Notes: a model not told the origin generated them from the letters alone. DNA of 64,000 bases from Parcubacteria group bacterium (GCA_041659065.1 JBAZYY010000004.1:2406-66405), one strand, 5' to 3'; shown: positions 5,652-61,761, counted from the stretch's first letter. Program-made: numbers and translations.

Positions 5652-6233
5652 ATGGAAGTTAATAAAATAATTGTTGATAAAATAAAAAAAGAGGCAATCG
5701 GCGTCATCCCAACCGATACTATTTATGGCGTTGTGGCTTCGGCATTATCCAAAAAAGCTGTCGCGCGCGCCTACAAAATTCTCAGTCGAAACCCCAAGAA
5801 GCCTTTTATTATCCTCATCAGTTCAATCAAGGATTTGGAATTATTCGGAGTAATTTTGGATAATGACGCCAAAAGAATCCTCAAAAAACTCTGGCCTGGG
5901 AAAGTCAGCGTCATTCTCCCATCTCCAGGCAATAATTTTCGGTATTTGCACCGAGGAACAAAATCATTAGCCTTCAGGCTCCCCAGAAAAAAGTCTTTGA
6001 CCGAATTACTTGGAAAAACCGGCCCGCTCATTTCCACCAGCGCCAACCCGGAGGGGAAAAAACCGGCAGTTACGGTTGCCGGAGCAAAAAAATATTTCGA
6101 TAATAAGGTTGATTTTTTTGTGAACGCCGGGAAGTTATCTTCAAAGTCATCCACACTTTTGAAAGTCGAAGGCGGAAAGATTTGTATTATTAGACGTGGC
6201 ACTTTTCAAACTCCGGAAAATTTGCTACAATAA
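5652..6233 (+). CDS. tsaC: L-threonylcarbamoyladenylate synthase (TsaC/YrdC/Sua5 family)
   Basis: YrdC motifs IPTDTIYGVVASA, KPFIILISS and LISTSANPEG. Confidence 0.85.
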   Translation: MEVNKIIVDKIKKEAIGVIPTDTIYGVVASALSKKAVARAYKILSRNPKKPFIILISSIKDLELFGVILDNDAKRILKKLWPGKVSVILPSPGNNFRYLHRGTKSLAFRLPRKKSLTELLGKTGPLISTSANPEGKKPAVTVAGAKKYFDNKVDFFVNAGKLSSKSSTLLKVEGGKICIIRRGTFQTPENLLQ

Positions 6234-6266
6234 GATTTGTTTTAGTAAAAATTAACCATCATAATC

Positions 6267-6380
6267 ATGGAAGATAAATGCCCAAATTGCGGCAAATCGA
6301 TGGATGAATGCTCCTGCGAAAAGGAAGATGCGCAAGAACATGGATGTCATTGTCCGTCTTGTGACCATCCTTGCGAATAG
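6267..6380 (+). CDS. 37-aa Cys-rich mini-protein (zinc-ribbon/metallothionein-like)
   Basis: ATG..TAG translates to MEDKCPNCGKSMDECSCEKEDAQEHGCHCPSCDHPCE, with 8 Cys including CPNCG and CPSC knuckles. It lies between tsaC and a strong terminator. It is below the ORF-track size cut-off. Confidence 0.35.
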   Translation: MEDKCPNCGKSMDECSCEKEDAQEHGCHCPSCDHPCE

Positions 6381-6414
6381 GATTCTCCGCAATAATTTAA
6401 ACTAGTGTATTTTG

Positions 6415-6448
6415 CGCCTCCCCTCTAACGGGAGGCGTATTTCTTTTC
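6415..6448 (+). terminator. Rho-independent terminator
   Basis: CGCCTCCCctctaacGGGAGGCGtatttcttttc. Confidence 0.55.
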
Positions 6449-6571
6449 AAAATCCTGAATATTGGTTATTATATCAACAATGAATGATTTGAGGATATAT
6501 TTCCCATTCGAAAAATAGTTTTTTTCTCGCACAATTTTGGTTTAAATATAAACTGAAGGGAGGTGAGAAAT

Positions 6572-6784
6572 ATGAAAAAAATGAGCACTATGGATTGGAT
6601 CGCAATGATTTTACTGATCATTGGCGGTTTGAATTGGGGTTTGGTGGGTTTTTTCAAGTTTGATTTAGTTGCTGCAATCTTTGGAGACATGACTGCTGTT
6701 TCAAGAGTTATTTACGCTCTAGTTGGCCTCTCGGCACTCTACATGATTTGGATGGCAACAGCCGGAGACAATAAATCGGAATAG
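6572..6784 (+). CDS. DUF378-family small membrane protein
   Basis: Strong SD gaagGGAGGtgagaaat before the ATG at 6572. The GGLNWGLVG motif is characteristic of DUF378. Confidence 0.65.
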   Translation: MKKMSTMDWIAMILLIIGGLNWGLVGFFKFDLVAAIFGDMTAVSRVIYALVGLSALYMIWMATAGDNKSE

Positions 6785-6922
6785 TCTGAGCTTAATTTAA
6801 TATATTGATTTTAAGCCGAAAGAAGTCGGAATTGTATTTTGTGGTTTATATTTATTATTTGACGTTTACTTTTTTTAAAAATATCCCGATCTGCTCCTTT
6901 CCTTTTCTGGAAAGTTTGAAAA

Positions 6923-6981
6923 TGGTGCCCTCAGAGGGAGTCGAACCTTCATTTCCCCGCCCGTGGCGGGGCGCTCTCACC
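6923..6981 (-). other. tRNA-like 3' half (T-arm + acceptor 3' strand + encoded CCA) with no 5' half
   Basis: Minus strand reads GGTGAGAGCG-CCCCGCCacgGGCGGGG-AAATG-AAGG-TTCGACT-CCCTC-TGAGGGC-A-CCA. It has a canonical T-loop, a 3' acceptor strand, a discriminator and CCA, preceded by a 7-bp GC hairpin (variable-arm-like). The complementary 5' acceptor strand GCCCTCA is absent. Confidence 0.4.
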
Positions 6982-6991
6982 TTTTTATATA

Positions 6992-7063
6992 TGCCCTCGA
7001 CAGGAATCGAACCTGTATTTTAAGTTCCGGAAACTTACGCCCTATCCGTTGGACGACGAGGAC
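6992..7063 (-). tRNA. tRNA-Arg (anticodon CCG)
   Basis: Folded by hand: acceptor GTCCTCG/CGAGGGC, D-arm GTCC..GGGC, anticodon stem TAAGT/ACTTA with loop TTCCGGA, T-arm ACAGG-TTCGATT-CCTGT, discriminator A. CCA is not encoded. Confidence 0.8.
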
Positions 7064-7100
7064 ATTTGGTACAGTATACTGTTTTACTGTACTGGGTATT

Positions 7101-8354
7101 TTACTTGTTTTTCCAATTTTTCTTTCGCAATTTCTTGTGATAACCAATCGCAAATCGGTGCGCTTCGTTTCGAATTCTTTCAACCAGACCTTCATCACTG
7201 ATAACGCTCTGAAAAACCAATGCCTCCTTATTGTAATACATATCCACTTTTTTGCGAGTGGATCCTTTAGCAACTCCCACCACGGGAATATCATGACCAA
7301 ACTCACTTACCACATTTTCAGCCATGTTTAGATGCCCTTTTCCCCCATCCACAAAAATGAGATCCGGCAACGGCCAGTCGTTTTGAAAACGGCGCCGGAG
7401 CATTTCGCGCATCATGCCCACATCATCGATGCCCTTGATCGTAATTATTTTAAACTTGCGATATTGGCTCTTGTCCGGCTTGTGTCCAGCAAAAACAACC
7501 ATCGAGCCTGTTGCGAAATCCCCTCCGATATTCGAGACGTCGTACGCTTCGATTCTTGTATTTTCAATTTTATCTGCTGAGATTGCCAAACCTTTTGATA
7601 CCATATCCTCGGATATCAAAGCAATATCCCGGATGTGCTCAAGCGCAAAAATTCTATTTCGCGCCTGGGCCGCTTTTTCAAATTCCTTATCTTTCGAGTA
7701 AGATTTCATTTGTTTTTCGAGCTGTGTCAGCAAGTTCTTTTTTTTGCCGCGCAAAATCATTTCGATCCCATGAATGTTTTTGAGGTAATCCTTTTTGGAT
7801 ATTGCGCCTGCGTAGGGGCCAGGACATCTCCCAATCTGAAAATCAAGGCAGCCCTTTTCCGTTTTTGCCTTGATGGAATGGAAAGGAAATATTTTGCGGA
7901 TCAGCTTGAGCGCAGTTTCCATCTGATGCTTAGACATATACGGGCCATAAATGCTTTCGGCCTGATATTTTCCCAATTGCGTTTTGAAAACCGCCAGCAC
8001 CCGCGGAAATTCTTCTTTCGTGATTACAAAATAGCCGAAACTCTTGTCATCTTTCTCCCGCACGTTGTATTTCGGCAAGTGTTTCTTGATGAGATTTGCT
8101 TCGAGAATCAGCGCCTCTAAAACCGAATCCGTCTCGTGGACTTTTATATCCGCTACCAACGGAATCATTCCCCCAATTTGAGGTCTATCCTCGAAGTATT
8201 CGAGGTGAGACCTCGAATGGAAATACGAACTCACTCTATCCTTGAGGCTCGTCGCTTTGCCAATATAAAGAATTTTCCCTTGTTTATCTCGAAATTCATA
8301 CACGCCGGGGGATTTGGGAAGGTTGGATATTTTGGATTTTAGATTGTTTGACAC
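7101..8354 (-). CDS. uvrC: Excinuclease ABC subunit C, short form (GIY-YIG + UVR + RNaseH-like endonuclease domain; the C-terminal (HhH)2 region is missing)
   Basis: N-terminal GIY-YIG (GVYEFRDKQGKILYIGKATSLKDRV). UVR helix EFEKAAQARNRIFALEHI. C-terminal endonuclease region LIFVDGGKGHL. The product is only 417 aa. Confidence 0.8.
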   Translation of the reverse strand: MSNNLKSKISNLPKSPGVYEFRDKQGKILYIGKATSLKDRVSSYFHSRSHLEYFEDRPQIGGMIPLVADIKVHETDSVLEALILEANLIKKHLPKYNVREKDDKSFGYFVITKEEFPRVLAVFKTQLGKYQAESIYGPYMSKHQMETALKLIRKIFPFHSIKAKTEKGCLDFQIGRCPGPYAGAISKKDYLKNIHGIEMILRGKKKNLLTQLEKQMKSYSKDKEFEKAAQARNRIFALEHIRDIALISEDMVSKGLAISADKIENTRIEAYDVSNIGGDFATGSMVVFAGHKPDKSQYRKFKIITIKGIDDVGMMREMLRRRFQNDWPLPDLIFVDGGKGHLNMAENVVSEFGHDIPVVGVAKGSTRKKVDMYYNKEALVFQSVISDEGLVERIRNEAHRFAIGYHKKLRKKNWKNK

Positions 8355-8596
8355 TTATTTTTAAAAGTATTACAGTTAGCGAAGTAAATCCTTTAATAAT
8401 CAATCCTCATTCCTAGTAAATCCAGCACTAACCACGTGCCTGGGAGCTAGCTTTAGTATTTTGAATAGACTTTGGAGAAAAAGCATGGAAACGGCCTTAA
8501 TAGTAAATTACTATTTACAAGACCAATTTCCCGACTTCCTTTAATAGCTCTATTGCTTTAGCTAAGTTAATGAGGATTGTTTTTCGAAGGATTTTT

Positions 8597-11527
8597 TTAT
8601 TTCAACACTTCCTTCAAAAACTTTCCCGTATAACTTTCTTTATCATACTTCACCACTTCTTCCGGTGGGCCGGTGACGACGACTCGGCCGCCTTTGTCTC
8701 CGCCTTCAGGGCCAAGATCGATAATCCAATCAGCTGTTTTGATGACATCCATATTGTGCTCGATGACAATCACTGTGTTCCCCGCGTCCACTAAGCGGTG
8801 CAAAACGTCCAACAGTTTTTTTACGTCGTCAAAATGGAGTCCTGTTGTCGGCTCATCTAGAATATACACGGTGTTCCCTGTCATGCGCCGCGAGAGTTCT
8901 GACGCCAATTTGATCCTTTGCGCTTCCCCGCCCGAAAGAGTCGTCGCCGACTGACCGAGGTTGATGTATCCCAGCCCAACTTCGTTCAAAACTTTTAAGG
9001 CTTCGTGGATCTTCGGATAGTTTTCAAAAAATTCCACCGCTTCCGCGACCGGCATTGCTAAGACGTCGGCAATATTTTTTCCTTTGTATTTTACCTGCAA
9101 AGTTTCGCGATTGTATCTTTTTCCATGGCAAACATCGCACGGCACGAAAACATCCGGCAAAAATTGCATTTCCACTTTGATGAAGCCCTCTCCGCGGCAA
9201 TTGTCGCAGCGTCCGCCATTCACATTAAAAGAAAACCTGCCCGGGCCATATCCTCTTTCGCGCGCATCCTTTGTGAGCGCGAACAGTTCCCGGATATTTG
9301 TGAAAAATCCGACATATGTCGCGGGATTCGACCGCGGCGTTCTTCCGATTGGCGACTGATCGATGTGAATAACCTTATCCACATATTGCATCCCAAGAAT
9401 TTCTTTGTGTCGGCCTGGCCGCTCGAGCGACCGCATAATTTTCGACGATAAGCCTTTATATAAGATTTCCTGCACGAGCGTTGATTTTCCGCTCCCGGAA
9501 ACTCCCGTCACGACAGTCAGAACTTTCAGCGGAAAATCCACCGTCACGCTTTTGAGATTGTGCTCCGTCGCTCCTTTCACCGTCAGCCATTTTTTGTTCC
9601 GGATCGGCCGTCTGGTTTTTGGAATCCCAATTTCCAAATCTCCGCGCAAATATTTTCCCGTAATCGAATCCTTGGCATTTTCAATATCCTTGACTGATCC
9701 TTCAGCAATCACTTTTCCCCCGAGTCTCCCCGCTCCTGGACCGATATCAACCAAATGATCAGCGGCGCGGATCGTTTCTTCGTCGTGCTCAATCACTATC
9801 ACAGTGTTCCCAAGGTCTCTCAATTTGAGCAATGTTTGCAGTAATTTCGTATTGTCCCGCGCATGAAGCCCGACCGAGGGTTCGTCGAGAATATATAGAA
9901 CGCCCACGAGCTGAGATCCAATTTGAGACGCAAGCCGGATTCTTTGCGTTTCTCCTCCCGCAAGCGTATTTGCTGATCTTCCGAGAGTTAAATAACCCAA
10001 GCCGACGTTATCCAAAAAATGCAAACGGCTGTGGATTTCTTTCACGATTCTCTCCGCGATCAGTTCTTCGCGCTGGCTCAACTTAAGGTTGTGAAAAAAT
10101 TTCAGTGATTCCATCACAGGGAGACTCGATATTTCATAGATGTTCTTGTCACCTACGGTTATCCAGAGCGCTTCCTTTTTATATCTCGAACCTTTGCAAG
10201 TCGGACAAACATTTGGCGACATATATTTTTCGATATCTTCCCGCACCGCTTCTGATTCGGTTTTGAAATAGCGATCGCGCATAAAACCCAAAATTCCATT
10301 CCACTCGACGTCGAAAGTCCAGACAGTCCCGGTCTTCGTTCGCATTCTCACCCCGACCATATCTGGCTCTTCGTCGCCATGCAATAAAATATTTTGATGT
10401 TTCTCGCTTAAATCCCTAAATCTGACATTGTCAGGTATGCGGTAATAATTAGTCACAGCCCGCAATATGGATCCTTGATAGTTATTCGGTTTGTAGCTCC
10501 AAGGCATGATCGCCCCTTCCGCGATCGTGCGGGTTTTGTCGGGAATCACAAGATTCGGATCAATTTCTTTTTTCGTTCCGAGCCCTTCGCACGTCAGGCA
10601 CGCTCCCTGCGGACTGTTGAAAGAAAATAATCTAGGCTCAATTTCCGGAAAAACCACCTCTTCGTGATCAGGACAGGAAAGATTTTGATTGAATACTATT
10701 TCACTACTCTCGTCTTTCTTTTGGATTTTAGATTTTTGATTTGATTTGACGCTTGGATTTTGAAATTTGGATTTTATCTTAACTAGCCCTTGCGAAAGCC
10801 GCAGCGCCTTTTCCACGCTCTCAAAGATTCTGGTTAAATTTTTGTCGCTGATCTCCACTTCGTCGATTCTGATATCGATGCTGTGTTTTTTGTATCGCGC
10901 AAGCGAGAGTCCTTGCTTGGCTTTTTCGGTGAGATCTATTTTTTTCCCATCGACATACGCCTCTGAAAACCCACGCTTCCACATCTCGCCAAGTAGCGTT
11001 GAATATTCCCCTTTCCGCTCGCGGACGACTGGAGAAAGTATTTCAATTTTCGTTGGAGGTTCGACCTCCCTTTTGGAGGTCGAACCTCCACAACCTGCGC
11101 ACAAATCAATGATTCGATCCACAATTTCATCAATCGAAAGCTTCCGAATCTCTTTCCCGTCAATCGGACAATGCGCCACGCCGATTTTGGCAAAAAGAAG
11201 CCGCATATAATCGTGAATCTCCGTCACTGTTCCAACGGTCGAGCGCGGATTATGCGAAGCGGATTTTTGATCGATGGAAATGGCCGGGCTCAAGCCTTCA
11301 ATAGAGTCAACATCTGGCTTTTCCATTTGTCCCAAAAATTGCCGGGCATAGCTCGAAAGGCTTTCTAAATACCTTCTCTGCCCCTCGGCAAAAATGGTAT
11401 CAAAAGCCAGAGTCGATTTTCCCGACCCGCTGATTCCAGTGAACACGATAAACTTTCCCCGCGGAAGTTCGAGGTTGATGTTTTTTAAATTATGCTCTCT
11501 AGCGCCACGTATAATTATGCTATTCAT
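8597..11527 (-). CDS. uvrA: Excinuclease ABC subunit A
   Basis: Two ABC modules (GISGSGKSTLAFDTIFAEGQRRY; GVSGSGKSTLV) and zinc-finger Cys pairs; 976 aa. Confidence 0.95.
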   Translation of the reverse strand: MNSIIIRGAREHNLKNINLELPRGKFIVFTGISGSGKSTLAFDTIFAEGQRRYLESLSSYARQFLGQMEKPDVDSIEGLSPAISIDQKSASHNPRSTVGTVTEIHDYMRLLFAKIGVAHCPIDGKEIRKLSIDEIVDRIIDLCAGCGGSTSKREVEPPTKIEILSPVVRERKGEYSTLLGEMWKRGFSEAYVDGKKIDLTEKAKQGLSLARYKKHSIDIRIDEVEISDKNLTRIFESVEKALRLSQGLVKIKSKFQNPSVKSNQKSKIQKKDESSEIVFNQNLSCPDHEEVVFPEIEPRLFSFNSPQGACLTCEGLGTKKEIDPNLVIPDKTRTIAEGAIMPWSYKPNNYQGSILRAVTNYYRIPDNVRFRDLSEKHQNILLHGDEEPDMVGVRMRTKTGTVWTFDVEWNGILGFMRDRYFKTESEAVREDIEKYMSPNVCPTCKGSRYKKEALWITVGDKNIYEISSLPVMESLKFFHNLKLSQREELIAERIVKEIHSRLHFLDNVGLGYLTLGRSANTLAGGETQRIRLASQIGSQLVGVLYILDEPSVGLHARDNTKLLQTLLKLRDLGNTVIVIEHDEETIRAADHLVDIGPGAGRLGGKVIAEGSVKDIENAKDSITGKYLRGDLEIGIPKTRRPIRNKKWLTVKGATEHNLKSVTVDFPLKVLTVVTGVSGSGKSTLVQEILYKGLSSKIMRSLERPGRHKEILGMQYVDKVIHIDQSPIGRTPRSNPATYVGFFTNIRELFALTKDARERGYGPGRFSFNVNGGRCDNCRGEGFIKVEMQFLPDVFVPCDVCHGKRYNRETLQVKYKGKNIADVLAMPVAEAVEFFENYPKIHEALKVLNEVGLGYINLGQSATTLSGGEAQRIKLASELSRRMTGNTVYILDEPTTGLHFDDVKKLLDVLHRLVDAGNTVIVIEHNMDVIKTADWIIDLGPEGGDKGGRVVVTGPPEEVVKYDKESYTGKFLKEVLK

Positions 11528-11623
11528 ACTTTAATGCTATTACTTGCCCCGTAGCCAACGCAAAGCGTTATATTTCGGGGTGTTCACACGCTCCCCTGAT
11601 TATTATCTTATCCATAAAGTTTC

Positions 11624-11666
11624 CCTAAGATGACATCTTAGGACGCCCCTGAGATGCTATCTTAGG
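11624..11666. promoter_or_regulatory. Candidate operator: perfect palindrome CCTAAGATG-a-CATCTTAGG plus a related half-site 9 nt downstream, between divergent uvrA and a small ORF
   Basis: The 19-nt palindrome at 11624-11642 and GAGATGctATCTTAGG at 11651-11666 both share an AGATG..ATCT core. They lie about 100 nt upstream of the uvrA start. Confidence 0.35.
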
Positions 11667-11817
11667 AATCGTCCGAATGCAAAAATTCCCCATTTTGGGG
11701 CAACCTGTATAGTAATACCTCTCGGTTAATAAATCAATTTCAATATTTGCTTAGAAAGGCATGAGCAAATATAATAGTTGATAGGGATTATTACAATTAT
11801 TTGCAGGAGGAGAGCAA

Positions 11818-12134
11818 TGACTCGAATAAACGGCTCTTTGTACAAGCATCTGGGTCAAAACATATCTTCTTTCAGCGCGTTATGCCCGCTGGGACATCTG
11901 AAATCCGTCTTAACTGAAGAAGGTTTTATAAAATTAGAAAATATTAAAGACTTCTTCAATCAAGTTTGGAAAATGATGTACGAATTCGGCTATGGTGATA
12001 AATTTGTGTCCAAAAACCTAGCTAATATCAATATTGATATGTTCTATTTCGTCATTATCGCGCTAAACAAAAGATATAAAAATTCTTTGCGATGGGAAAA
12101 ATTAAAATGGCCTCTCTGGGAAATTAAAACCTAA
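11818..12134 (+). CDS. Hypothetical protein (105 aa)
   Basis: GGAGG SD 7 nt before the ATG at 11818 (MTRINGSLYKHLGQ...). It is divergent from uvrA. No family recognised. Confidence 0.45.
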
Positions 12135-12177
12135 GGGCGTGCCTTTTGCGATGTGTTCTTTTCGCTAAGATACAAAA

Positions 12178-14139
12178 CTATCCCATCTGCAATTTCCGCA
12201 ATTGCACAATCTCATCCCGAATCACCGCCGCTTTTTCGAATTCCAAATTCCTCGCGGCGGTTTTCATTTCCGATTCTTTTTGCTTGATATATCCCTCAAT
12301 ATCCTCGAGTGATTCGAGATTCACGAATTCCTGGGGCATTTCGGGTTTGAGCTCATGATCAACGATCGACTCGATCTTTTTCTTGATTGTTTTCGGCGTG
12401 ATATGGTGCTTTTTGTTGAACGCCGTTTGCGTCGCGCGCCGGCGGTTGGTTTCGTCGATTGCTCTTTTCATCGAACCGGTGACATGATCGGCATAGAGAA
12501 TCACCCGCCCGGCAATGTTCCTCGCCGCCCGGCCGATCGTTTGGATGAGCGAAGTTTCACTGCGCAAAAATCCTTCTTTGTCCGCGTCGAGAATTGCGAC
12601 GAGCGACACTTCTGGCAAATCCAAGCCCTCACGGAGCAAATTTACACCGACAAGCACATCAAATTTCCCGCGCCGCAAATCCTCGAGAATATTCACCCGC
12701 TCAATCGTCGCCACGCCTGAGTGCAGATATTCCGCCTTGATCTCGCTTTCTTTGAGATAATCCGAAAGATCTTCCGCCATTTTTTTGGTGAGAGTTGTGA
12801 TCAAAACGCGCTCTTTTTTCTTCACCACTTTCGCCACTTCTGCCATCACGTCTTTCACTTGGCCTTTCGCCGGTCGCAAAACCAATTCCGGATCGATGAG
12901 GCCCGTCGGACGGATGATTTGTTCGACGATTTGAGCGGAATTTTTTCGTTCGTACTCCGACGGAGTGGCCGTCGTGAAAATAACCTGATTGATTTTTTGC
13001 TCGAATTCCGGAAATTTGAGCGGCCGGTTGTCATAGGCGCTTGGCAGACGAAAACCGTTTTCAATGAGCGCCGTTTTTCGGGCCCGATCACCGTTGTACA
13101 TCGCATTCAGCTGCGGCACCGTCACATGCGACTCATCGATCACGATCAAAAAGTTTTTGGCGAAATAGTCGATGAGCGTATGCGGCGGCTCCCCTGCCTG
13201 GCGCCCGGTCAGATATCGGGAATAGTTTTCGATCCCGTTGCAATAGCCAACCTCGCGCATCAGCTCAAGATCTTGTTTTGTCCGCCGCCACAGTCGTTCC
13301 GCTTCCAGAAGCTTGTTGTTTTTTCGAAAATACGCCACCCTTTCTTCAAGTTCTTTTTCGATGTCTCCAAGCGCGTCTTGCATGACCGGTTCTGGCACAA
13401 CAAAATGTTTGGCGGGATAGATCAGAGTTGTGTCCAGTTTTCCCAATACTTCGCCGGTCAATAAGTCGTATTCGGATATTCTGCGCGCGATGCCATCCTT
13501 GACCTCGATTCTGATCACAACTTCTCGCGAAGGAGTGACGACCTCAATATTCTCCCCTGTCACGCGAAATCTTCCGCGCAGAAGCACTTCCGAACGAATA
13601 TAATGCATGGAAGTGAGCCCGCTGATAATTTCCTGCCGGTCCAGCTTGTCTCCGACATTAATCTTCACGGAAGTTTCCTCATAATATTCCGGCGAACCCA
13701 AGCCGTAGATGCAGGAAACAGATGCCACGATAATCGTGTCTTTGCGCGAAAGCACCGCCGCCGTGGCCGCGTGGCGCAAGCGATCGATTTCGTCGTTGAT
13801 ATCGGCTTCTTTTTCGATGTAAGTGTCAGTTGAAGCAATGTAGGCTTCCGGCTGGTAATAATCGTAGTAAGAAACGAAATATTCCACCGCGCTCTTCGGG
13901 AAAAAAGTCCGGAATTCCTGGGCCAATTGCGCCGCAAGTGTTTTGTTGGGCGCGATCACTAGTGTCGGCCTTTGTATGTTCTCGATCACATTCGCCATCG
14001 TAAAAGTCTTCCCCGATCCGGTCACGCCGAGCAGAGTTTGGAATTTGTCCCCGCGCTGAAGACCGGCGGTCAATTGCTTGATTGCCTTGGGCTGATCGCC
14101 ATCGGGACTAAATTTTGAGTTGATCTTAAATTTAGACAC
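12178..14139 (-). CDS. uvrB: Excinuclease ABC subunit B
   Basis: Helicase motifs LGVTGSGKTFTMA and DESH. UVR domain at the C-terminus (EFEKAAVIRDEIVQLRK). Confidence 0.95.
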   Translation of the reverse strand: MSKFKINSKFSPDGDQPKAIKQLTAGLQRGDKFQTLLGVTGSGKTFTMANVIENIQRPTLVIAPNKTLAAQLAQEFRTFFPKSAVEYFVSYYDYYQPEAYIASTDTYIEKEADINDEIDRLRHAATAAVLSRKDTIIVASVSCIYGLGSPEYYEETSVKINVGDKLDRQEIISGLTSMHYIRSEVLLRGRFRVTGENIEVVTPSREVVIRIEVKDGIARRISEYDLLTGEVLGKLDTTLIYPAKHFVVPEPVMQDALGDIEKELEERVAYFRKNNKLLEAERLWRRTKQDLELMREVGYCNGIENYSRYLTGRQAGEPPHTLIDYFAKNFLIVIDESHVTVPQLNAMYNGDRARKTALIENGFRLPSAYDNRPLKFPEFEQKINQVIFTTATPSEYERKNSAQIVEQIIRPTGLIDPELVLRPAKGQVKDVMAEVAKVVKKKERVLITTLTKKMAEDLSDYLKESEIKAEYLHSGVATIERVNILEDLRRGKFDVLVGVNLLREGLDLPEVSLVAILDADKEGFLRSETSLIQTIGRAARNIAGRVILYADHVTGSMKRAIDETNRRRATQTAFNKKHHITPKTIKKKIESIVDHELKPEMPQEFVNLESLEDIEGYIKQKESEMKTAARNLEFEKAAVIRDEIVQLRKLQMG

Positions 14140-57831: not shown

Positions 57832-58824
57832 TTATTTTTTTATGCGAAGTGTTAACTTATGCGCATTCCCGTGCGAAAGCAATCCGAGATACGAGGCGAT
57901 TGATTCCGACGCGGAATTATTCTTTATTCTTTTCATCATCCTTTTCTTTGTGCTCGTCCGTAAAACTCTGTGATGCGGAAAATTGACCCAGCCGAGAAAA
58001 TCCACTCCGGAGGAAAAAGTTCTGACAAAAAATTTTTCAGGATGCAATGAAAGCGCCAATCTTCCATCCAGAAATTTCCCAATTCTGGGAATGAGATTCT
58101 CTAGATAAAATCTGTTTTTGTGAAGAATGACAAAGTCATCGGCGTAGCGGATATAATATTTTACTTTCAATATCCGTTTCATAAACTGGTCAAATTCGTT
58201 CATATAAATATTCACGAAAAGCTGGCTGGTGAGATTGCCGAGTGGCAGGCCGACGCCGATTTTGCCTTTCGCGCCAAAACTTTCAATCACCTGCGCCAAA
58301 AGCCACGAAACATCCTCGTCCGCGATATGTTTCGCCAGAATATTTTTCAAAATTTGATGGTTAATATTGGCGAAAAATTTTCGGATGTCACACTTCAAAA
58401 TCCAACAAGTTTTTGTGTTATTCTTGGAAACCCTCATTCCAAAACGCCGGAAACGCCTGATTGCCCGACGTGTCCCTTTCCCGATCCGGCAGGAATACGA
58501 ATCAAAAATGAACTTGCGGTCGAAATAAGAATACAAAATTCGGTAAATCGCGTGATGGACAAGCCGGTCGCGCACACTGGCTTTGTGAATGTCCCGCGGC
58601 TTCGGATCATTTATTTTGAAAGCCTGGTAGTCGCCATGCCGATAAGCTTTACTCGCGAGTTCACGGTGAAGGACGAGAATATTGTCTAAAAAATTCAGCG
58701 AAAATTCGGCCACATCTTTTCTTTTTCTTTTTCCGCGCAAAAACTCCCGCCAGGATTCGAGCAAATTTTCCACGGATATGATATTATCATAAGTATGATG
58801 AAGCCTTTTAATCCCCCCCCCCAT
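57832..58824 (-). CDS. DGR-type reverse transcriptase
   Basis: RT motifs 1-7 with catalytic YADD (IRYADDFVIL) and the DGR-RT hallmark LGNLTSQ in motif 4. GGAGGG SD before the ATG at 58824. A TR lies ~400 nt upstream on the same strand. Confidence 0.9.
   Translation of the reverse strand: MGGGIKRLHHTYDNIISVENLLESWREFLRGKRKRKDVAEFSLNFLDNILVLHRELASKAYRHGDYQAFKINDPKPRDIHKASVRDRLVHHAIYRILYSYFDRKFIFDSYSCRIGKGTRRAIRRFRRFGMRVSKNNTKTCWILKCDIRKFFANINHQILKNILAKHIADEDVSWLLAQVIESFGAKGKIGVGLPLGNLTSQLFVNIYMNEFDQFMKRILKVKYYIRYADDFVILHKNRFYLENLIPRIGKFLDGRLALSLHPEKFFVRTFSSGVDFLGWVNFPHHRVLRTSTKKRMMKRIKNNSASESIASYLGLLSHGNAHKLTLRIKK
58813..58822 (-). repeat. Homopolymeric tract C10 (G10 on the coding strand) inside the start of the RT ORF
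   Basis: Forward strand reads atCCCCCCCCCCat. The minus strand reads ATGGGGGGGGGGATT, encoding M-G-G-G-I. Confidence 0.9.
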
Positions 58825-58897
58825 TCCCTCCGGCAGAGCCTCGATTCTTCAGCGAATCAAAGAGGGATATTTGATATGGCTTTCTATTGTTCCGCAT

Positions 58898-59197
58898 ATG
58901 CAAAAGGGCGCGCGCTATACCATCGGCGCCAGAATTGAAAACAAATTTCTCGATTTACTGGAACTGGCGCATATCACTTACTTTTCCAAAAAAGAGGGGA
59001 AGATTGAAAAAATTTCCGATTGTATTTTTCTTTTGGATAAAATCAAATTTCTTGTTTCCGTTGCCTGGGATGGAAAATTGATTTCCAACCGGCATTTTGA
59101 GGAAATCGCCGCCAAACTTGATGAGACGGGCCGGATGCTATGGGGATGGAAGGAAAAAATAAAAAAGAGCCCCGAAAAGAAAAACCGCGATTTGTGA
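58898..59197 (+). CDS. Avd-like accessory (helical bundle) protein candidate, on the opposite strand to the RT and target
   Basis: 99-aa helical ORF (MQKGARYTIGARIENKFLDLLELAHITYF...ISNRHFEEIAAKLDETGRMLWGWKEKIKK). Its C-terminal helices resemble the four-helix-bundle/Avd family. It lies between the RT and the TR. Confidence 0.4.
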   Translation: MQKGARYTIGARIENKFLDLLELAHITYFSKKEGKIEKISDCIFLLDKIKFLVSVAWDGKLISNRHFEEIAAKLDETGRMLWGWKEKIKKSPEKKNRDL

Positions 59198-59217
59198 ACG
59201 CGGAAGAAAAAGAAAGC

Positions 59218-59349
59218 ACTTTCGGAGGCGGAAGACAAACTCATTGTCGAGATTCCACCTGTTCGATGGATTCGTCCAGTTGTTGTCAAGCCAAAAACCG
59301 TCGTCGTTCCGGTTCACGTTGAAAACGTTCAAGTCGCCGTCGGAGTCGA
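59218..59349 (-). repeat. DGR template repeat (TR), 132 bp
   Basis: Aligns to 59769-59900 with about 15 differences. Every difference is at a position where the TR coding (minus) strand has A. In the VR frame the TR would encode DGDLNVFNVNRNDDGFWLDNNWTNPSNRWNLDNEFVFRLRK, which is AAC-codon rich. Confidence 0.85.
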
Positions 59350-59766
59350 TTTTGCGTGCCACGCCATCCGTTCCACTGCCTGCGCGATTCGGCGCAACGC
59401 TGTATTTTATTTGCGATCTAAAATCGACCAGCGCGGCACACCAAGTCTTTTCTTTTTTGAAAAGCACGGCGCAAATCCTCCGCGGAAAGTCTTGACCGTT
59501 CGCGTTCTCAATTTGCGCTTGCGGGAAAGGTCTCGAATAGCCGTGGCCATTCGATGCAACCGATCCAAGTTTATTTTATCCTCACGTCAAATTTTTTACA
59601 AGTTTCGAATGTTTGTTGAGAGTGCTTGATATTGATGCGGGACTATGCCAAAAAATTGCGTCGCCCGCCCACGGCGGAAAAAAATCAAAGCGTCAAAGAT
59701 TCAAAGTGTCCCGCCTACGCTAAAGCTTCGGCGGGCAAAATTTTCAAAGAGACAAAGTTTCTAAGA

Positions 59767-61761
59767 TTACTTGCGGAGGCGGAAGACAAACTCATGGTCG
59801 AGATGCCACCTGTTCGATGGATTCGTCCAGCTGATGCCAAGCCAAAAACCGTCGTCGCTCCGGCGCACGCGGAAAACGCTCAAGTCGCCGCCGGAGCCGA
59901 AAATCTGTTTCATGGCGATTCGCAAATACTCGTACATCGGCTGTTCTCTTTGGAAAACTTCTTCGTATTTCAGCCTCAAATGTGGTCCGACTTCCGGCGG
60001 ACAGAGTTCCAATCCCAATTCTTCCGCTCTCTTATATAATTCATCTGTAGTCGGATTTTCAGTGAATCCCAGATCCCTCACCTTGAGGCGAACTAGGTCG
60101 ATAGTTTCTGGATTTTTCAATCTTTCTTGGATGGAGACGGTGAAATCCTTGTGCTTCATCATGCTTTCGGCGTACGAACTTATTTGATAATTTCTGCCTT
60201 GCTCATCTTTTTTGTTTTCAATTTCTTTTTTCAGTTCTTCTTCCGTCATGCCGCCAATTTCGATTTTCCCTTGATCTATTTTGCCTTCAGGAAAAGAGGT
60301 ATAGATATGTTCAATATTGTATTTTTGGATCAGGTCGAAAATACCGGACTCCAATCTTCCGATATACGCTTTTGTATTTCCGGTGATATCCTCTTGCTTC
60401 CAGGCAATTTCTTCCGGTTGACATTCAAAAACAATCGGAGCGTCTTCTTTTGGCTTTCTGGTTTTTCGGATTTCCTCGATGCGGGGATCCTTTTGAAGGC
60501 CGAAATATTTGATTGGCCGGTCTATTTCATAAATAAAGACCAGCTCCTCTCGGCTTAGCGGAACTCTCGCGGATATCTTTTTGTCAATTGCCGTGAGAAA
60601 TTTCATATCCCGGTCAATTTCAAAAAATTCTTCGCCGCCGGGAAAAGTTTTCAGCTTATCGCTGATGATGTTCGATTCCTTGATGTATTTGTCAACATTT
60701 TCCTCCCATTCGATGCCGCGGACTTCCATCACTTTTTTGTCCTTTTCAACAACAACCACCCGGGGGATCGAAAATTGGCCGTCACGATCACGGGTATAAT
60801 AAATATGGAGATTGCCCGATTCAAGATATTGTCCAGCTATCTGCTCTCCGGCAATGCACCAGCCGGAACCTTTGCCCTGCAAAGTTTCTGTCAAATTTTT
60901 CGGTTCGCTGCCTTGCTCATAAACGACCCATTGGCCTTCCGTGATTTGCATTTCTTCTTCGCTGATGGGCGGAAGATATTCCTGACCCCAGCCGTATAAA
61001 GCGCGGAAATCTTTCTGTTCGAGGTGCTTTCGAAATGCTTGTCTGGCTTCTTCCGGAATATCATAGCGAAAACTTATGTCTTTATTTTCCGATTGCGCCT
61101 TATATGCCTTGGCGATAAATTCCAGCACCCGATCGTTGACTTCGGGAAACATTTTTACCGATCTCTGCTTTCCGGTTGAACGTTCGGGAAATTTACCGGA
61201 AATTCCTTTTTCTTTGTCTCCTTTTTTATATCGTTCCAATCGGAGCATGCCCTGAAACGCCCAGTATTTGAGATAATCGGGCAAATATGAAGATTTTTCC
61301 GAAGCCAGATAATCAATCCACTCTTCTAGAGATCCCTTTTGATCTTCTTTTGTCTGGACGAGATGCTCCAGCTTGATCTTTAGTTTTTGTTCCTCGGACA
61401 ATTCTTGCCAGTCTCCCGCTTCGCCGCGCGATCGAACCACCCGCATTTGAGCTTGCCAGTAGCTTTCAGGAATGTCTTCCACTCTGACAACATAAGAATC
61501 AATTAATATTTTCTTGAGAGCGTTAATGCCTCGTTTTCTATCTTTTTGGTCGTTGCGATCCATGATTTCCTTGAAACGGTCTAAGTAATTCTGAATTTGC
61601 GCTTCGAATTGATCAAGTTTCGGATATTTCGAATCAGCTGCTTCATGCGTTCTCTTTTCCGTCCGTTTTGCCGCCTTTTGCGCTTCGGGGCTTTTCGCGA
61701 GCAAGGGGAATCGCTCCTTGATAAATTTGGAATTTTGTTCGAATGAATCGTATTTTTCCAT
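59767..61761 (-). CDS. DGR target protein (664 aa), VR in the last ~43 codons; no obvious signal peptide
   Basis: Long ORF ending TAA at 59767-59769. Its C-terminus overlaps the VR. The N-terminal 600 aa are unannotatable and hydrophilic. Confidence 0.85.
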   Translation of the reverse strand: MEKYDSFEQNSKFIKERFPLLAKSPEAQKAAKRTEKRTHEAADSKYPKLDQFEAQIQNYLDRFKEIMDRNDQKDRKRGINALKKILIDSYVVRVEDIPESYWQAQMRVVRSRGEAGDWQELSEEQKLKIKLEHLVQTKEDQKGSLEEWIDYLASEKSSYLPDYLKYWAFQGMLRLERYKKGDKEKGISGKFPERSTGKQRSVKMFPEVNDRVLEFIAKAYKAQSENKDISFRYDIPEEARQAFRKHLEQKDFRALYGWGQEYLPPISEEEMQITEGQWVVYEQGSEPKNLTETLQGKGSGWCIAGEQIAGQYLESGNLHIYYTRDRDGQFSIPRVVVVEKDKKVMEVRGIEWEENVDKYIKESNIISDKLKTFPGGEEFFEIDRDMKFLTAIDKKISARVPLSREELVFIYEIDRPIKYFGLQKDPRIEEIRKTRKPKEDAPIVFECQPEEIAWKQEDITGNTKAYIGRLESGIFDLIQKYNIEHIYTSFPEGKIDQGKIEIGGMTEEELKKEIENKKDEQGRNYQISSYAESMMKHKDFTVSIQERLKNPETIDLVRLKVRDLGFTENPTTDELYKRAEELGLELCPPEVGPHLRLKYEEVFQREQPMYEYLRIAMKQIFGSGGDLSVFRVRRSDDGFWLGISWTNPSNRWHLDHEFVFRLRK
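59769..59900 (-). repeat. DGR variable repeat (VR) at the 3' end of the target gene
   Basis: Encodes GGDLSVFRVRRSDDGFWLGISWTNPSNRWHLDHEFVFRLRK. The residues that differ from the TR translation are exactly the Asn (AAC) codons of the TR. Confidence 0.85.

Follow-up and report, generated by a model that had tools for sequence, protein, structure and literature searches.

A complete diversity-generating retroelement in a Parcubacteria genome, with its variable repeat in a predicted C-type-lectin domain

The DNA analysed in this study is a stretch of 64,000 nucleotides (nt), referred to here as the window, from a metagenome-assembled genome (MAG) of a Parcubacteria group bacterium (GCA_041659065.1, JBAZYY010000004.1:2406-66405). 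Between positions 57,832 and 61,761 it contains a diversity-generating retroelement (DGR), the parts of which follow each other on the minus strand in the order target gene with variable repeat (VR), a 419-nt spacer, template repeat (TR), inverted avd gene, and reverse transcriptase (RT) gene. The target gene (59767-61761, minus strand) is an open reading frame (ORF) for a variable protein of 664 aa, which has the same sequence as MFA5871684.1 of a Parcubacteria group bacterium MAG and belongs to a family specific to the candidate phyla radiation (CPR). VR (59769-59900) and TR (59218-59349) are likewise on the minus strand, as is the gene for the 330-aa RT (57832-58824). The gene for the accessory variability determinant, avd (58871-59197, 108 aa), lies between TR and RT on the plus strand, which is why it was overlooked in an earlier note on this DNA. 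The central claim of that note, a complete DGR with adenine-specific divergence between TR and VR, is borne out: the RT is nearest to the RT of the Bordetella phage DGR (bRT), an Avd protein was found, and all 14 mismatches between the two repeats fall on TR adenines.

TR and VR form a direct repeat of 132 nt with 89% identity, the only long one that a repeat finder detected between 56 and 64 kb, and no further VR-like copies were found in the 64-kb window. VR comprises codons 621-664 and the first base of the target stop codon; it thus lies at the end of the 664-aa ORF, as described earlier, with 44 codons instead of about 43. The computational alignment that the note had proposed as a check (ungapped, on the minus or coding strand) confined the mismatches to TR adenines. 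Their number was 14 and not about 15, with a VR base of G in eight cases, C in five and T in one. Given the 34 adenines among the 132 nt of TR, a pattern of 14 out of 14 would arise by chance with P ~5e-10. Three more A-to-T differences between TR and VR stand at 59901-59903, just 5' of the repeat, where the homology fades. It is gone within 5 nt on that side, and its 3' limit is the target stop codon.

Read in the VR frame, TR contains seven AAC codons, in line with the richness in AAC noticed before, and three AAT codons, making ten AAY codons in total. Nearly all TR adenines (33 of 35) occupy codon positions 1 or 2, and a stop codon can be reached by adenine mutation at the last TR codon (AAG) alone, leaving ~2e19 protein variants accessible from TR. 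From TR to VR, Asn has become Ser, Arg, Ile or His, Asp has become Gly, and Ile has become Phe. Four of the five substitutions that the earlier note had listed for Asn were therefore found, while the glycines come from Asp codons. Since TR is designed without stop codons, an ORF of 109 aa (59138-59467, minus strand) also runs across it in the frame of VR; this ORF is not a gene.

The two repeats end in nearly the same way. The 3'-most 27 nt of VR (59769-59795, minus strand; GAGTTTGTCTTCCGCCTCCGCAAGT) correspond to an invariant element resembling the initiation of mutagenic homing (IMH) sequence, with a family-conserved ending CGCAAG, and its counterpart IMH* forms the 3' end of TR (59218-59244, minus strand), ending CGAAAGT. 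The IMH, which the note had suggested locating at the 3' end of VR, would thus be placed there, a role that we assign from the sequence. These 27 nt are invariant but for one site, at which VR reads CGCAAG and TR reads CGAAAG, and there are no variable adenines 3' of 59796 except this fixed site, 59773. For comparison we assembled 80 target-homologous loci (L001-L080) from species-representative genomes. VR has xGCAAG and TR has xGAAAx in 20 of 32 loci, and in five others TR has GCCAG where VR has GCAAG. Because CGA and CGC both encode Arg, the constant C in VR is not the result of protein selection. The last mismatch (59222/59773) belongs to this fixed distinction between IMH* and IMH and did not arise by mutagenesis, so that 13 mutagenic differences remain, and these show past retrohoming. 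The reading of the mismatches as a signature of mutagenic retrohoming consequently stands for 13 of them and fails for 59222/59773, which differs family-wide.

The RT matches RVT_1 at 1e-19 and carries the motifs LGNLTSQ and YADD, just as the earlier note had reported for the minus-strand ORF beside the repeat. Judged by these motifs, which follow the patterns [I/V/L]GxxxSQ and YxDD, the RT is of the DGR type. Its best solved relative is PDB chain 8ub7_A (E=3e-42), ahead of RTs of the group II intron and retron type at ~1e-18. Residues I181, Q187, D215 and D216, which a bRT-Avd cryo-EM preprint (bioRxiv 10.1101/2023.10.23.563531) names for the bRT of the Bordetella phage, are all present in the 8ub7 sequence aligned to our RT, and we therefore take 8ub7 to be bRT. 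Among phage protein families, the RT matches phrog_1423 at 2e-104. The Avd protein matches Pfam bAvd PF22296 (4e-11, 43.7 bits, over the 40-bit cutoff) and PHROG 3206, 'Avd protein of DGR' (5e-14).

The same cassette recurs in relatives of the target gene. A homologue of RT and/or Avd adjoins the target in about 40 of the 80 homologous loci, which come from many CPR lineages, and in every RT-bearing locus avd is oriented opposite to RT. Two layouts were found, either target(+)-TR(+)-avd(-)-RT(+) or one in which the entire TR-avd-RT module is inverted. TR/VR pairs were detected in 41 loci, and a TR adenine was the starting base of 737 of their 826 mismatches.

The original survey of CPR DGRs is reportedly that of Paul et al. 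2017 in Nat Microbiol. A later study defined the B3 architecture of CPR DGRs as TR-(avd)-RT with a reverse-strand avd, and 90% of CPR DGRs have it (Wu et al. 2018, PMC5758913). The element in the window has this gene order and orientation and is a CPR DGR of B3 architecture; in the scheme of Roux et al. 2021 (PMC8144416) its counterpart is DGR clade 2, which is restricted to CPR. We found no essential difference between our element and the DGRs of these two descriptions (Wu 2018; Roux 2021 clade 2), which share with it the host group, the gene order and orientation, the C-terminal VR, the adenine-specific mismatches, and targets without an annotated domain, signal peptide or transmembrane segment. 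Our element is a genuine and complete DGR, but of the standard kind found in thousands of CPR bacteria.

The target protein had no match in Pfam, NCBIfam, PADLOC, PHROGs or PDB sequences, by either sequence or profile searches. Its family is large, with more than 1068 homologues in a 90%-clustered database, every one of them a 'hypothetical' protein of Patescibacteria, and with 7818 representatives at E<=1e-3 (1918 at E<=1e-30) in a 50%-clustered library. Neither a signal peptide nor a membrane helix was predicted, the top Kyte-Doolittle mean over 19 residues being 0.61, and the protein is apparently cytoplasmic and CPR-specific. An AlphaFold2 model (117 homologues) reached a predicted local distance difference test score (pLDDT) of 92.5 and a predicted template modelling score (pTM) of 0.84. 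When the full model was compared with the PDB by Foldseek nothing significant was returned (best E 0.5). For the C-terminal ~115 residues (550-664; 59770-60114, minus strand), the prediction of a compact C-type-lectin (CLec) fold that contains VR is a confident one. The modelled domain has the beta-alpha-alpha-beta-beta-beta-beta arrangement of the CLec fold including VR, and VR supplies its last three strands and the loops.

The earlier note had described the target as lacking both a signal peptide and a recognisable ligand-binding fold, and as atypical for a DGR target in these respects. The first observation is correct; the second gave way once the suggested structure prediction of the C-terminus had been run, as VR sits in the predicted CLec domain. 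Nor is such a target atypical, because CPR DGR targets are usually without a recognisable transmembrane or conserved domain, and domain-less, signal-less targets are the published norm for these bacteria (Roux et al. 2021, PMC8144416; Wu et al. 2018, PMC5758913).

Further upstream, the target has an invariant core at residues 297-349 (window 60714-60872, minus strand), with the pattern GxGWC[TI]AG...YYxxD...PRV...EVRG, in which C302, R334, R348 and G349 are invariant among 117 target-family sequences. From its conservation, this core looks like a catalytic or ligand pocket. The PcfJ-like domain (PF14284) is one of the few motifs reported upstream of VR in CPR DGR targets (Wu et al. 2018), and its motif EGxxLxHCVG...FIRxK...PYFTLE...QIQG is similar by eye to the target core. 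The top local alignment of hhalign between target and PcfJ also lands exactly on the core stretch, with a probability of 0.05% and E 0.84. The resemblance has no statistical support and is no more than a lead, since hhalign against pCF10 PcfJ and its relatives gave E values of 0.35-0.84, with a shallow profile of close enterococcal relatives only, and the Pfam PcfJ model matched none of 11 target-family members. Many family matches cover only profile positions 1 to ~430, therefore the N-terminal module is also joined to other C-termini. Proteins with such partial matches and lengths of 800-1100 aa include P0144, P0182, P0206, P0246, P0257 and others, and their C-termini have no Pfam match.

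The variability of the target family follows the adenines of TR. We aligned the C-termini of homologues, 43 of them DGR-linked and 15 DGR-less, and calculated column entropies, grouping the columns by the number of adenines per TR codon; DGR-less means that no RT, Avd or TR was present within at least 3 kb on either side. In the DGR-linked proteins the entropy was 2.85 bits at two-adenine codons, 2.02 bits at one-adenine codons, and 1.01 bits at adenine-free codons. The DGR-less homologues gave 2.56, 1.84 and 1.14 bits, respectively. The DGR-less proteins share the hypervariable positions, therefore their VRs are either served in trans or frozen. In roughly half of the target homologues, RT, Avd and TR are all missing up to a distance of 6 kb, but the IMH-like CGCAAG end is kept. 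Such loci are L008, L017, L020, L030, L035-L037, L042, L047-L049 and others (25 with at least 3 kb downstream). L008 was considered as an 'empty site', which was not borne out by the flank comparison.

A conserved structured RNA domain of ~120 nt precedes the template. In the window it spans 59342-59461 (minus strand) and consists of a 12-bp closing helix and two internal hairpins. Single-stranded conserved motifs, namely ACUUGGUG, AAAUAAAAUACAGC, GGCAGUGG and GAUGG, are part of it, and an A-rich run precedes it. An alignment of 28 loci places the domain directly 5' of every TR, the 3' strand of the domain stopping ~10 nt short of TR. RNAalifold found 23 pairs, 19 of them with compensatory changes; one pair, for example, is realised as GC 12 times, AU eight times, GU four times, and UA twice. 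A covariance model trained on these 28 loci (R1) gave 45 matches, 17 of which were in loci outside the training set, and detected the domain at 66-127 bits in 43 loci. Its sole match in the window is the domain at 59342-59461, with 115 bits. The TR region and the 5' RNA domain had no match in Rfam 15.

R1 matched once per DGR locus, apart from a weak extra match in L013 (34 bits) and two matches in L006 that reflect a tandem duplication. At 6001-12820, L006 carries two tandem copies of target, 5' RNA domain and TR before one avd-RT pair. R1 gives both copies the same score of 124.0 bits (8097-8229 and 11203-11335), and over 181 nt the two target C-termini do not differ at all (100% identity). 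The duplication is either recent or an artefact of assembly. In L023, an R1 match (2630-2747, 65.7 bits) lies just past the target, and no TR repeat, RT or Avd was detected within 6 kb; this locus may be a decayed cassette. L003 has its match at the contig end (8064-8197), where the DGR is cut off.

Past the template, a hairpin (59174-59203, minus strand) begins 14 nt 3' of TR. It has the form CCGCG-9 nt-CGCGG and is followed by UUUUUCUUUUC. A hairpin with a U-run stands 12-17 nt past TR in all 28 loci, with 25 distinct stem sequences. Because the hairpin shares its DNA with the end of the convergent avd gene, namely the final codons and the stop, the Avd tail (..EKKNR..) and the RNA element are under mutual constraint. 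From its form and position, the hairpin could be an intrinsic terminator of the TR RNA or an Avd-binding stem-loop. Putative Avd-binding stem-loops have been described just downstream of TR in 207 DGRs, including those of CPR bacteria (bioRxiv 10.1101/2023.10.23.563531). The U-run after the hairpin could pair with the A-run before the 5' domain, in a duplex resembling the 'cPRT-Stop', or with the 3' end of TR. In the window, the pairing of the TR 3' end CCGAAAG with this U-run has an energy of -14.3 kcal/mol, and such a pairing, if real, would explain why the A is kept at the TR 3' end.

The region downstream of VR has its own repeats. Two clusters of CTT[TA]G repeats with 8-nt spacing (59745-59765 and 59686-59706, minus strand) flank a GC hairpin; the window minus strand contains no other such clusters, and Tandem Repeats Finder confirmed the period of 8. 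Across the loci, CTT[TA]G occurs 3.06 times per 150 nt after VRs versus 0.26 times in the rest of the loci (12-fold), with a dominant spacing of 8 nt. The motif is also enriched ~6-fold in the first 150 nt past the target stop of DGR-less homologues, therefore it goes with the 3' flank of the target gene. A consequence of the period of 8 is that copies containing TGA or TAG occur in all three frames. The GC hairpin between the clusters (59710-59736, minus strand; stems 59735-59730 and 59715-59710, CCCGCC/GGCGGG) has a 14-nt loop with GCTTTAGCGTA. It is not conserved across the family. A near-identical hairpin loop is present in L076, ~40-70 nt past the target stop, with no DGR nearby.

Taken as a whole, we are highly confident that the locus is a chromosomal B3-type CPR DGR made up of target with VR, structured RNA, TR, inverted avd, and RT. 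Its activity would proceed as follows. A non-coding RNA of ~290 nt would be made from the minus strand and include the 5' domain (59461-59342), TR (59349-59218), a short linker, and the hairpin with its U-run (59203-59174). By analogy with the Bordetella phage system, an RT-Avd complex would bind this RNA and copy TR into cDNA, with misincorporation opposite adenines. The cDNA would then replace VR, the recipient being marked by the invariant IMH at the VR 3' end. In this manner up to ~24 codons, mainly AAY (Asn) and GAC (Asp), could be rewritten in the last three strands and loops of the predicted CLec domain, which would give a hypervariable binding surface with ~1e19 possible variants. What is inferred here concerns where the RNA starts and stops, how its copying is primed, whether the element is active at present, and what the target binds.

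Several observations weigh against this reading or parts of it. The Avd protein scores 48.6 bits (8e-13) against NCBIfam DivGenRetAVD, under the curated cutoff of 80 bits. The pairings of the U-run with the A-run and with the TR end, both A/U-rich, have mean energies across the loci of -6.0 and -6.7 kcal/mol versus -4.1 kcal/mol for shuffled sequences, which is no clear advantage for either. Furthermore, JGI metagenome contigs were scanned for VR variants with the TR pattern in which each adenine was set to N. The sole other public contig with the element, Ga0172379_10122160 (L081, 1961 nt), has an identical VR and differs from the window by one synonymous A/G single-nucleotide polymorphism at 59908, 8 nt upstream of VR. 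An identical target protein is also present in a Logan assembly.

The identity of VR in these two other public assemblies is what would be expected if the DGR were a fossil or silent, with a VR that diversified earlier and is now a frozen variant. The 15 DGR-less homologues point in the same direction, as they keep hypervariable positions, IMH-like ends and CTTTG repeats, and frozen or trans-served VRs are therefore common in this family. We consider a silent DGR unlikely here, although the idea retains some weight. All parts are intact, including a full-length RT with YADD, Avd, uninterrupted AAY codons in TR, the 115-bit 5' RNA domain and the hairpin. Moreover, the assemblies may derive from one sample or from sister samples, and a consensus VR that is identical would then tell little about variability inside a population.

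A different question is whether the DGR is part of a prophage or other mobile element, with a target that serves as a phage receptor-binding protein like Mtd of the Bordetella phage. The matches of RT and Avd to phage PHROGs (2e-104 for the RT) would fit such an origin, as would the neighbourhood, for the synteny of the flanking genes is not conserved in any of the loci compared. The flanks in the window, however, are the housekeeping genes MurA and MreB and glycosyltransferases. The vicinity is free of integrase, tRNA and tail genes, the single tRNA being at 6992-7063; the target is unmatched in PHROGs, and the CPR-restricted clade 2 is almost wholly cellular (Roux et al. 2021, PMC8144416). 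A phage origin is thus very improbable. We regard as practically negligible the chance that there is no DGR at all and that the RT is of the group II intron, retron or defence type and stands by coincidence beside an ordinary duplicated gene fragment: the best named NCBIfam match of the RT is indeed a group II intron RT/maturase (134 bits, far under the 300-bit cutoff), with weak matches to many DRT and retron models, but NCBIfam returned no DGR-RT model, therefore its matches reflect generic RT homology, while among solved relatives bRT leads by 24 orders of magnitude, a DGR-type [I/L]GxLTSQ motif is present instead of a maturase domain, Avd adjoins the RT, an Rfam search found no intron or msr/msd RNA, and the adenine-only pattern, with its very low chance probability, recurs in ~40 loci.

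The chromosomal B3-type DGR can be compared with the Bordetella phage BPP-1 DGR (mtd-avd-TR-brt; PDB 8ub7 and related). The RTs are homologous, with IGxLTSQ and the catalytic DD conserved, and the two systems also share Avd, a TR of ~130 nt, the AAY codon design, a VR at the C-terminus of a CLec domain, and an IMH that differs from IMH*. In contrast to BPP-1, avd is here on the opposite strand and downstream of TR. BPP-1 has a 140-nt Spacer RNA after TR, whereas here only the hairpin and U-run precede the antisense avd, which leaves no room for it. Unlike BPP-1, our element has the conserved ~120-nt structured domain upstream of TR. Because the antisense avd fills the position of the Bordetella Spacer, the RNA for RT binding and priming is probably housed, by analogy, in the 5' domain. 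The hairpin after VR is not family-conserved here, and the 8-nt CTTTG array is conserved instead. Finally, the BPP-1 target is the tip of a phage tail fibre, while ours is a cellular and apparently cytoplasmic protein with a much smaller CLec domain (~115 aa). The target also differs from Treponema denticola TvpA and other CLec/FGE-like variable proteins, as it has no FGE-sulfatase/DUF1566 signature (no Pfam match) and no lipoprotein signal. Its own scaffold motif, unlike that of the TvpA type, is MKQIxDSxGxPxVFxLxRxxxGLWLxxxWAxPxxxWxxxxEFVFRLRK.

From these differences we tentatively propose a two-part model, which we consider possible but rather doubtful as a whole. B3-type CPR DGRs would use a rearranged RNA, in which the 5' domain acts as scaffold for RT/Avd binding and priming in place of the Bordetella Spacer, and the thousands of signal-less targets that join this N-terminal module to a mini-CLec domain would be intracellular recognition proteins and not surface adhesins. 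If the 5' domain is the Spacer equivalent, the topology with the scaffold upstream of the template would be retron-like. Such intracellular recognition proteins may, for example, be sensors of phage or host-cell molecules. We found no earlier description of the CLec assignment for this class of VR, of the 5' RNA domain or of the fixed IMH*/IMH nucleotide in a search that excluded Paul et al. 2017 and the supplement of Wu et al. 2018.

The DGR itself is confirmatory, one more example of a well-surveyed class. What it adds concerns its RNA and its target. A Bordetella-type Spacer cannot exist in B3, because avd holds that position on the other strand. The 5' RNA, the post-TR hairpin and the single IMH*/IMH nucleotide are thus testable handles on the priming and direction of reverse transcription in B3, and the covariance model R1 could mark CPR DGRs in genome annotation. 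The role of DGRs in CPR symbionts with reduced genomes was left open by Roux et al. 2021 (PMC8144416), and the CLec assignment bears on this role. One 'unknown VR' class of CPR targets can now be assigned to a predicted minimal CLec fold, which brings a very large family of unannotated and apparently cytoplasmic proteins under the rule that CLec scaffolds are what DGRs diversify.

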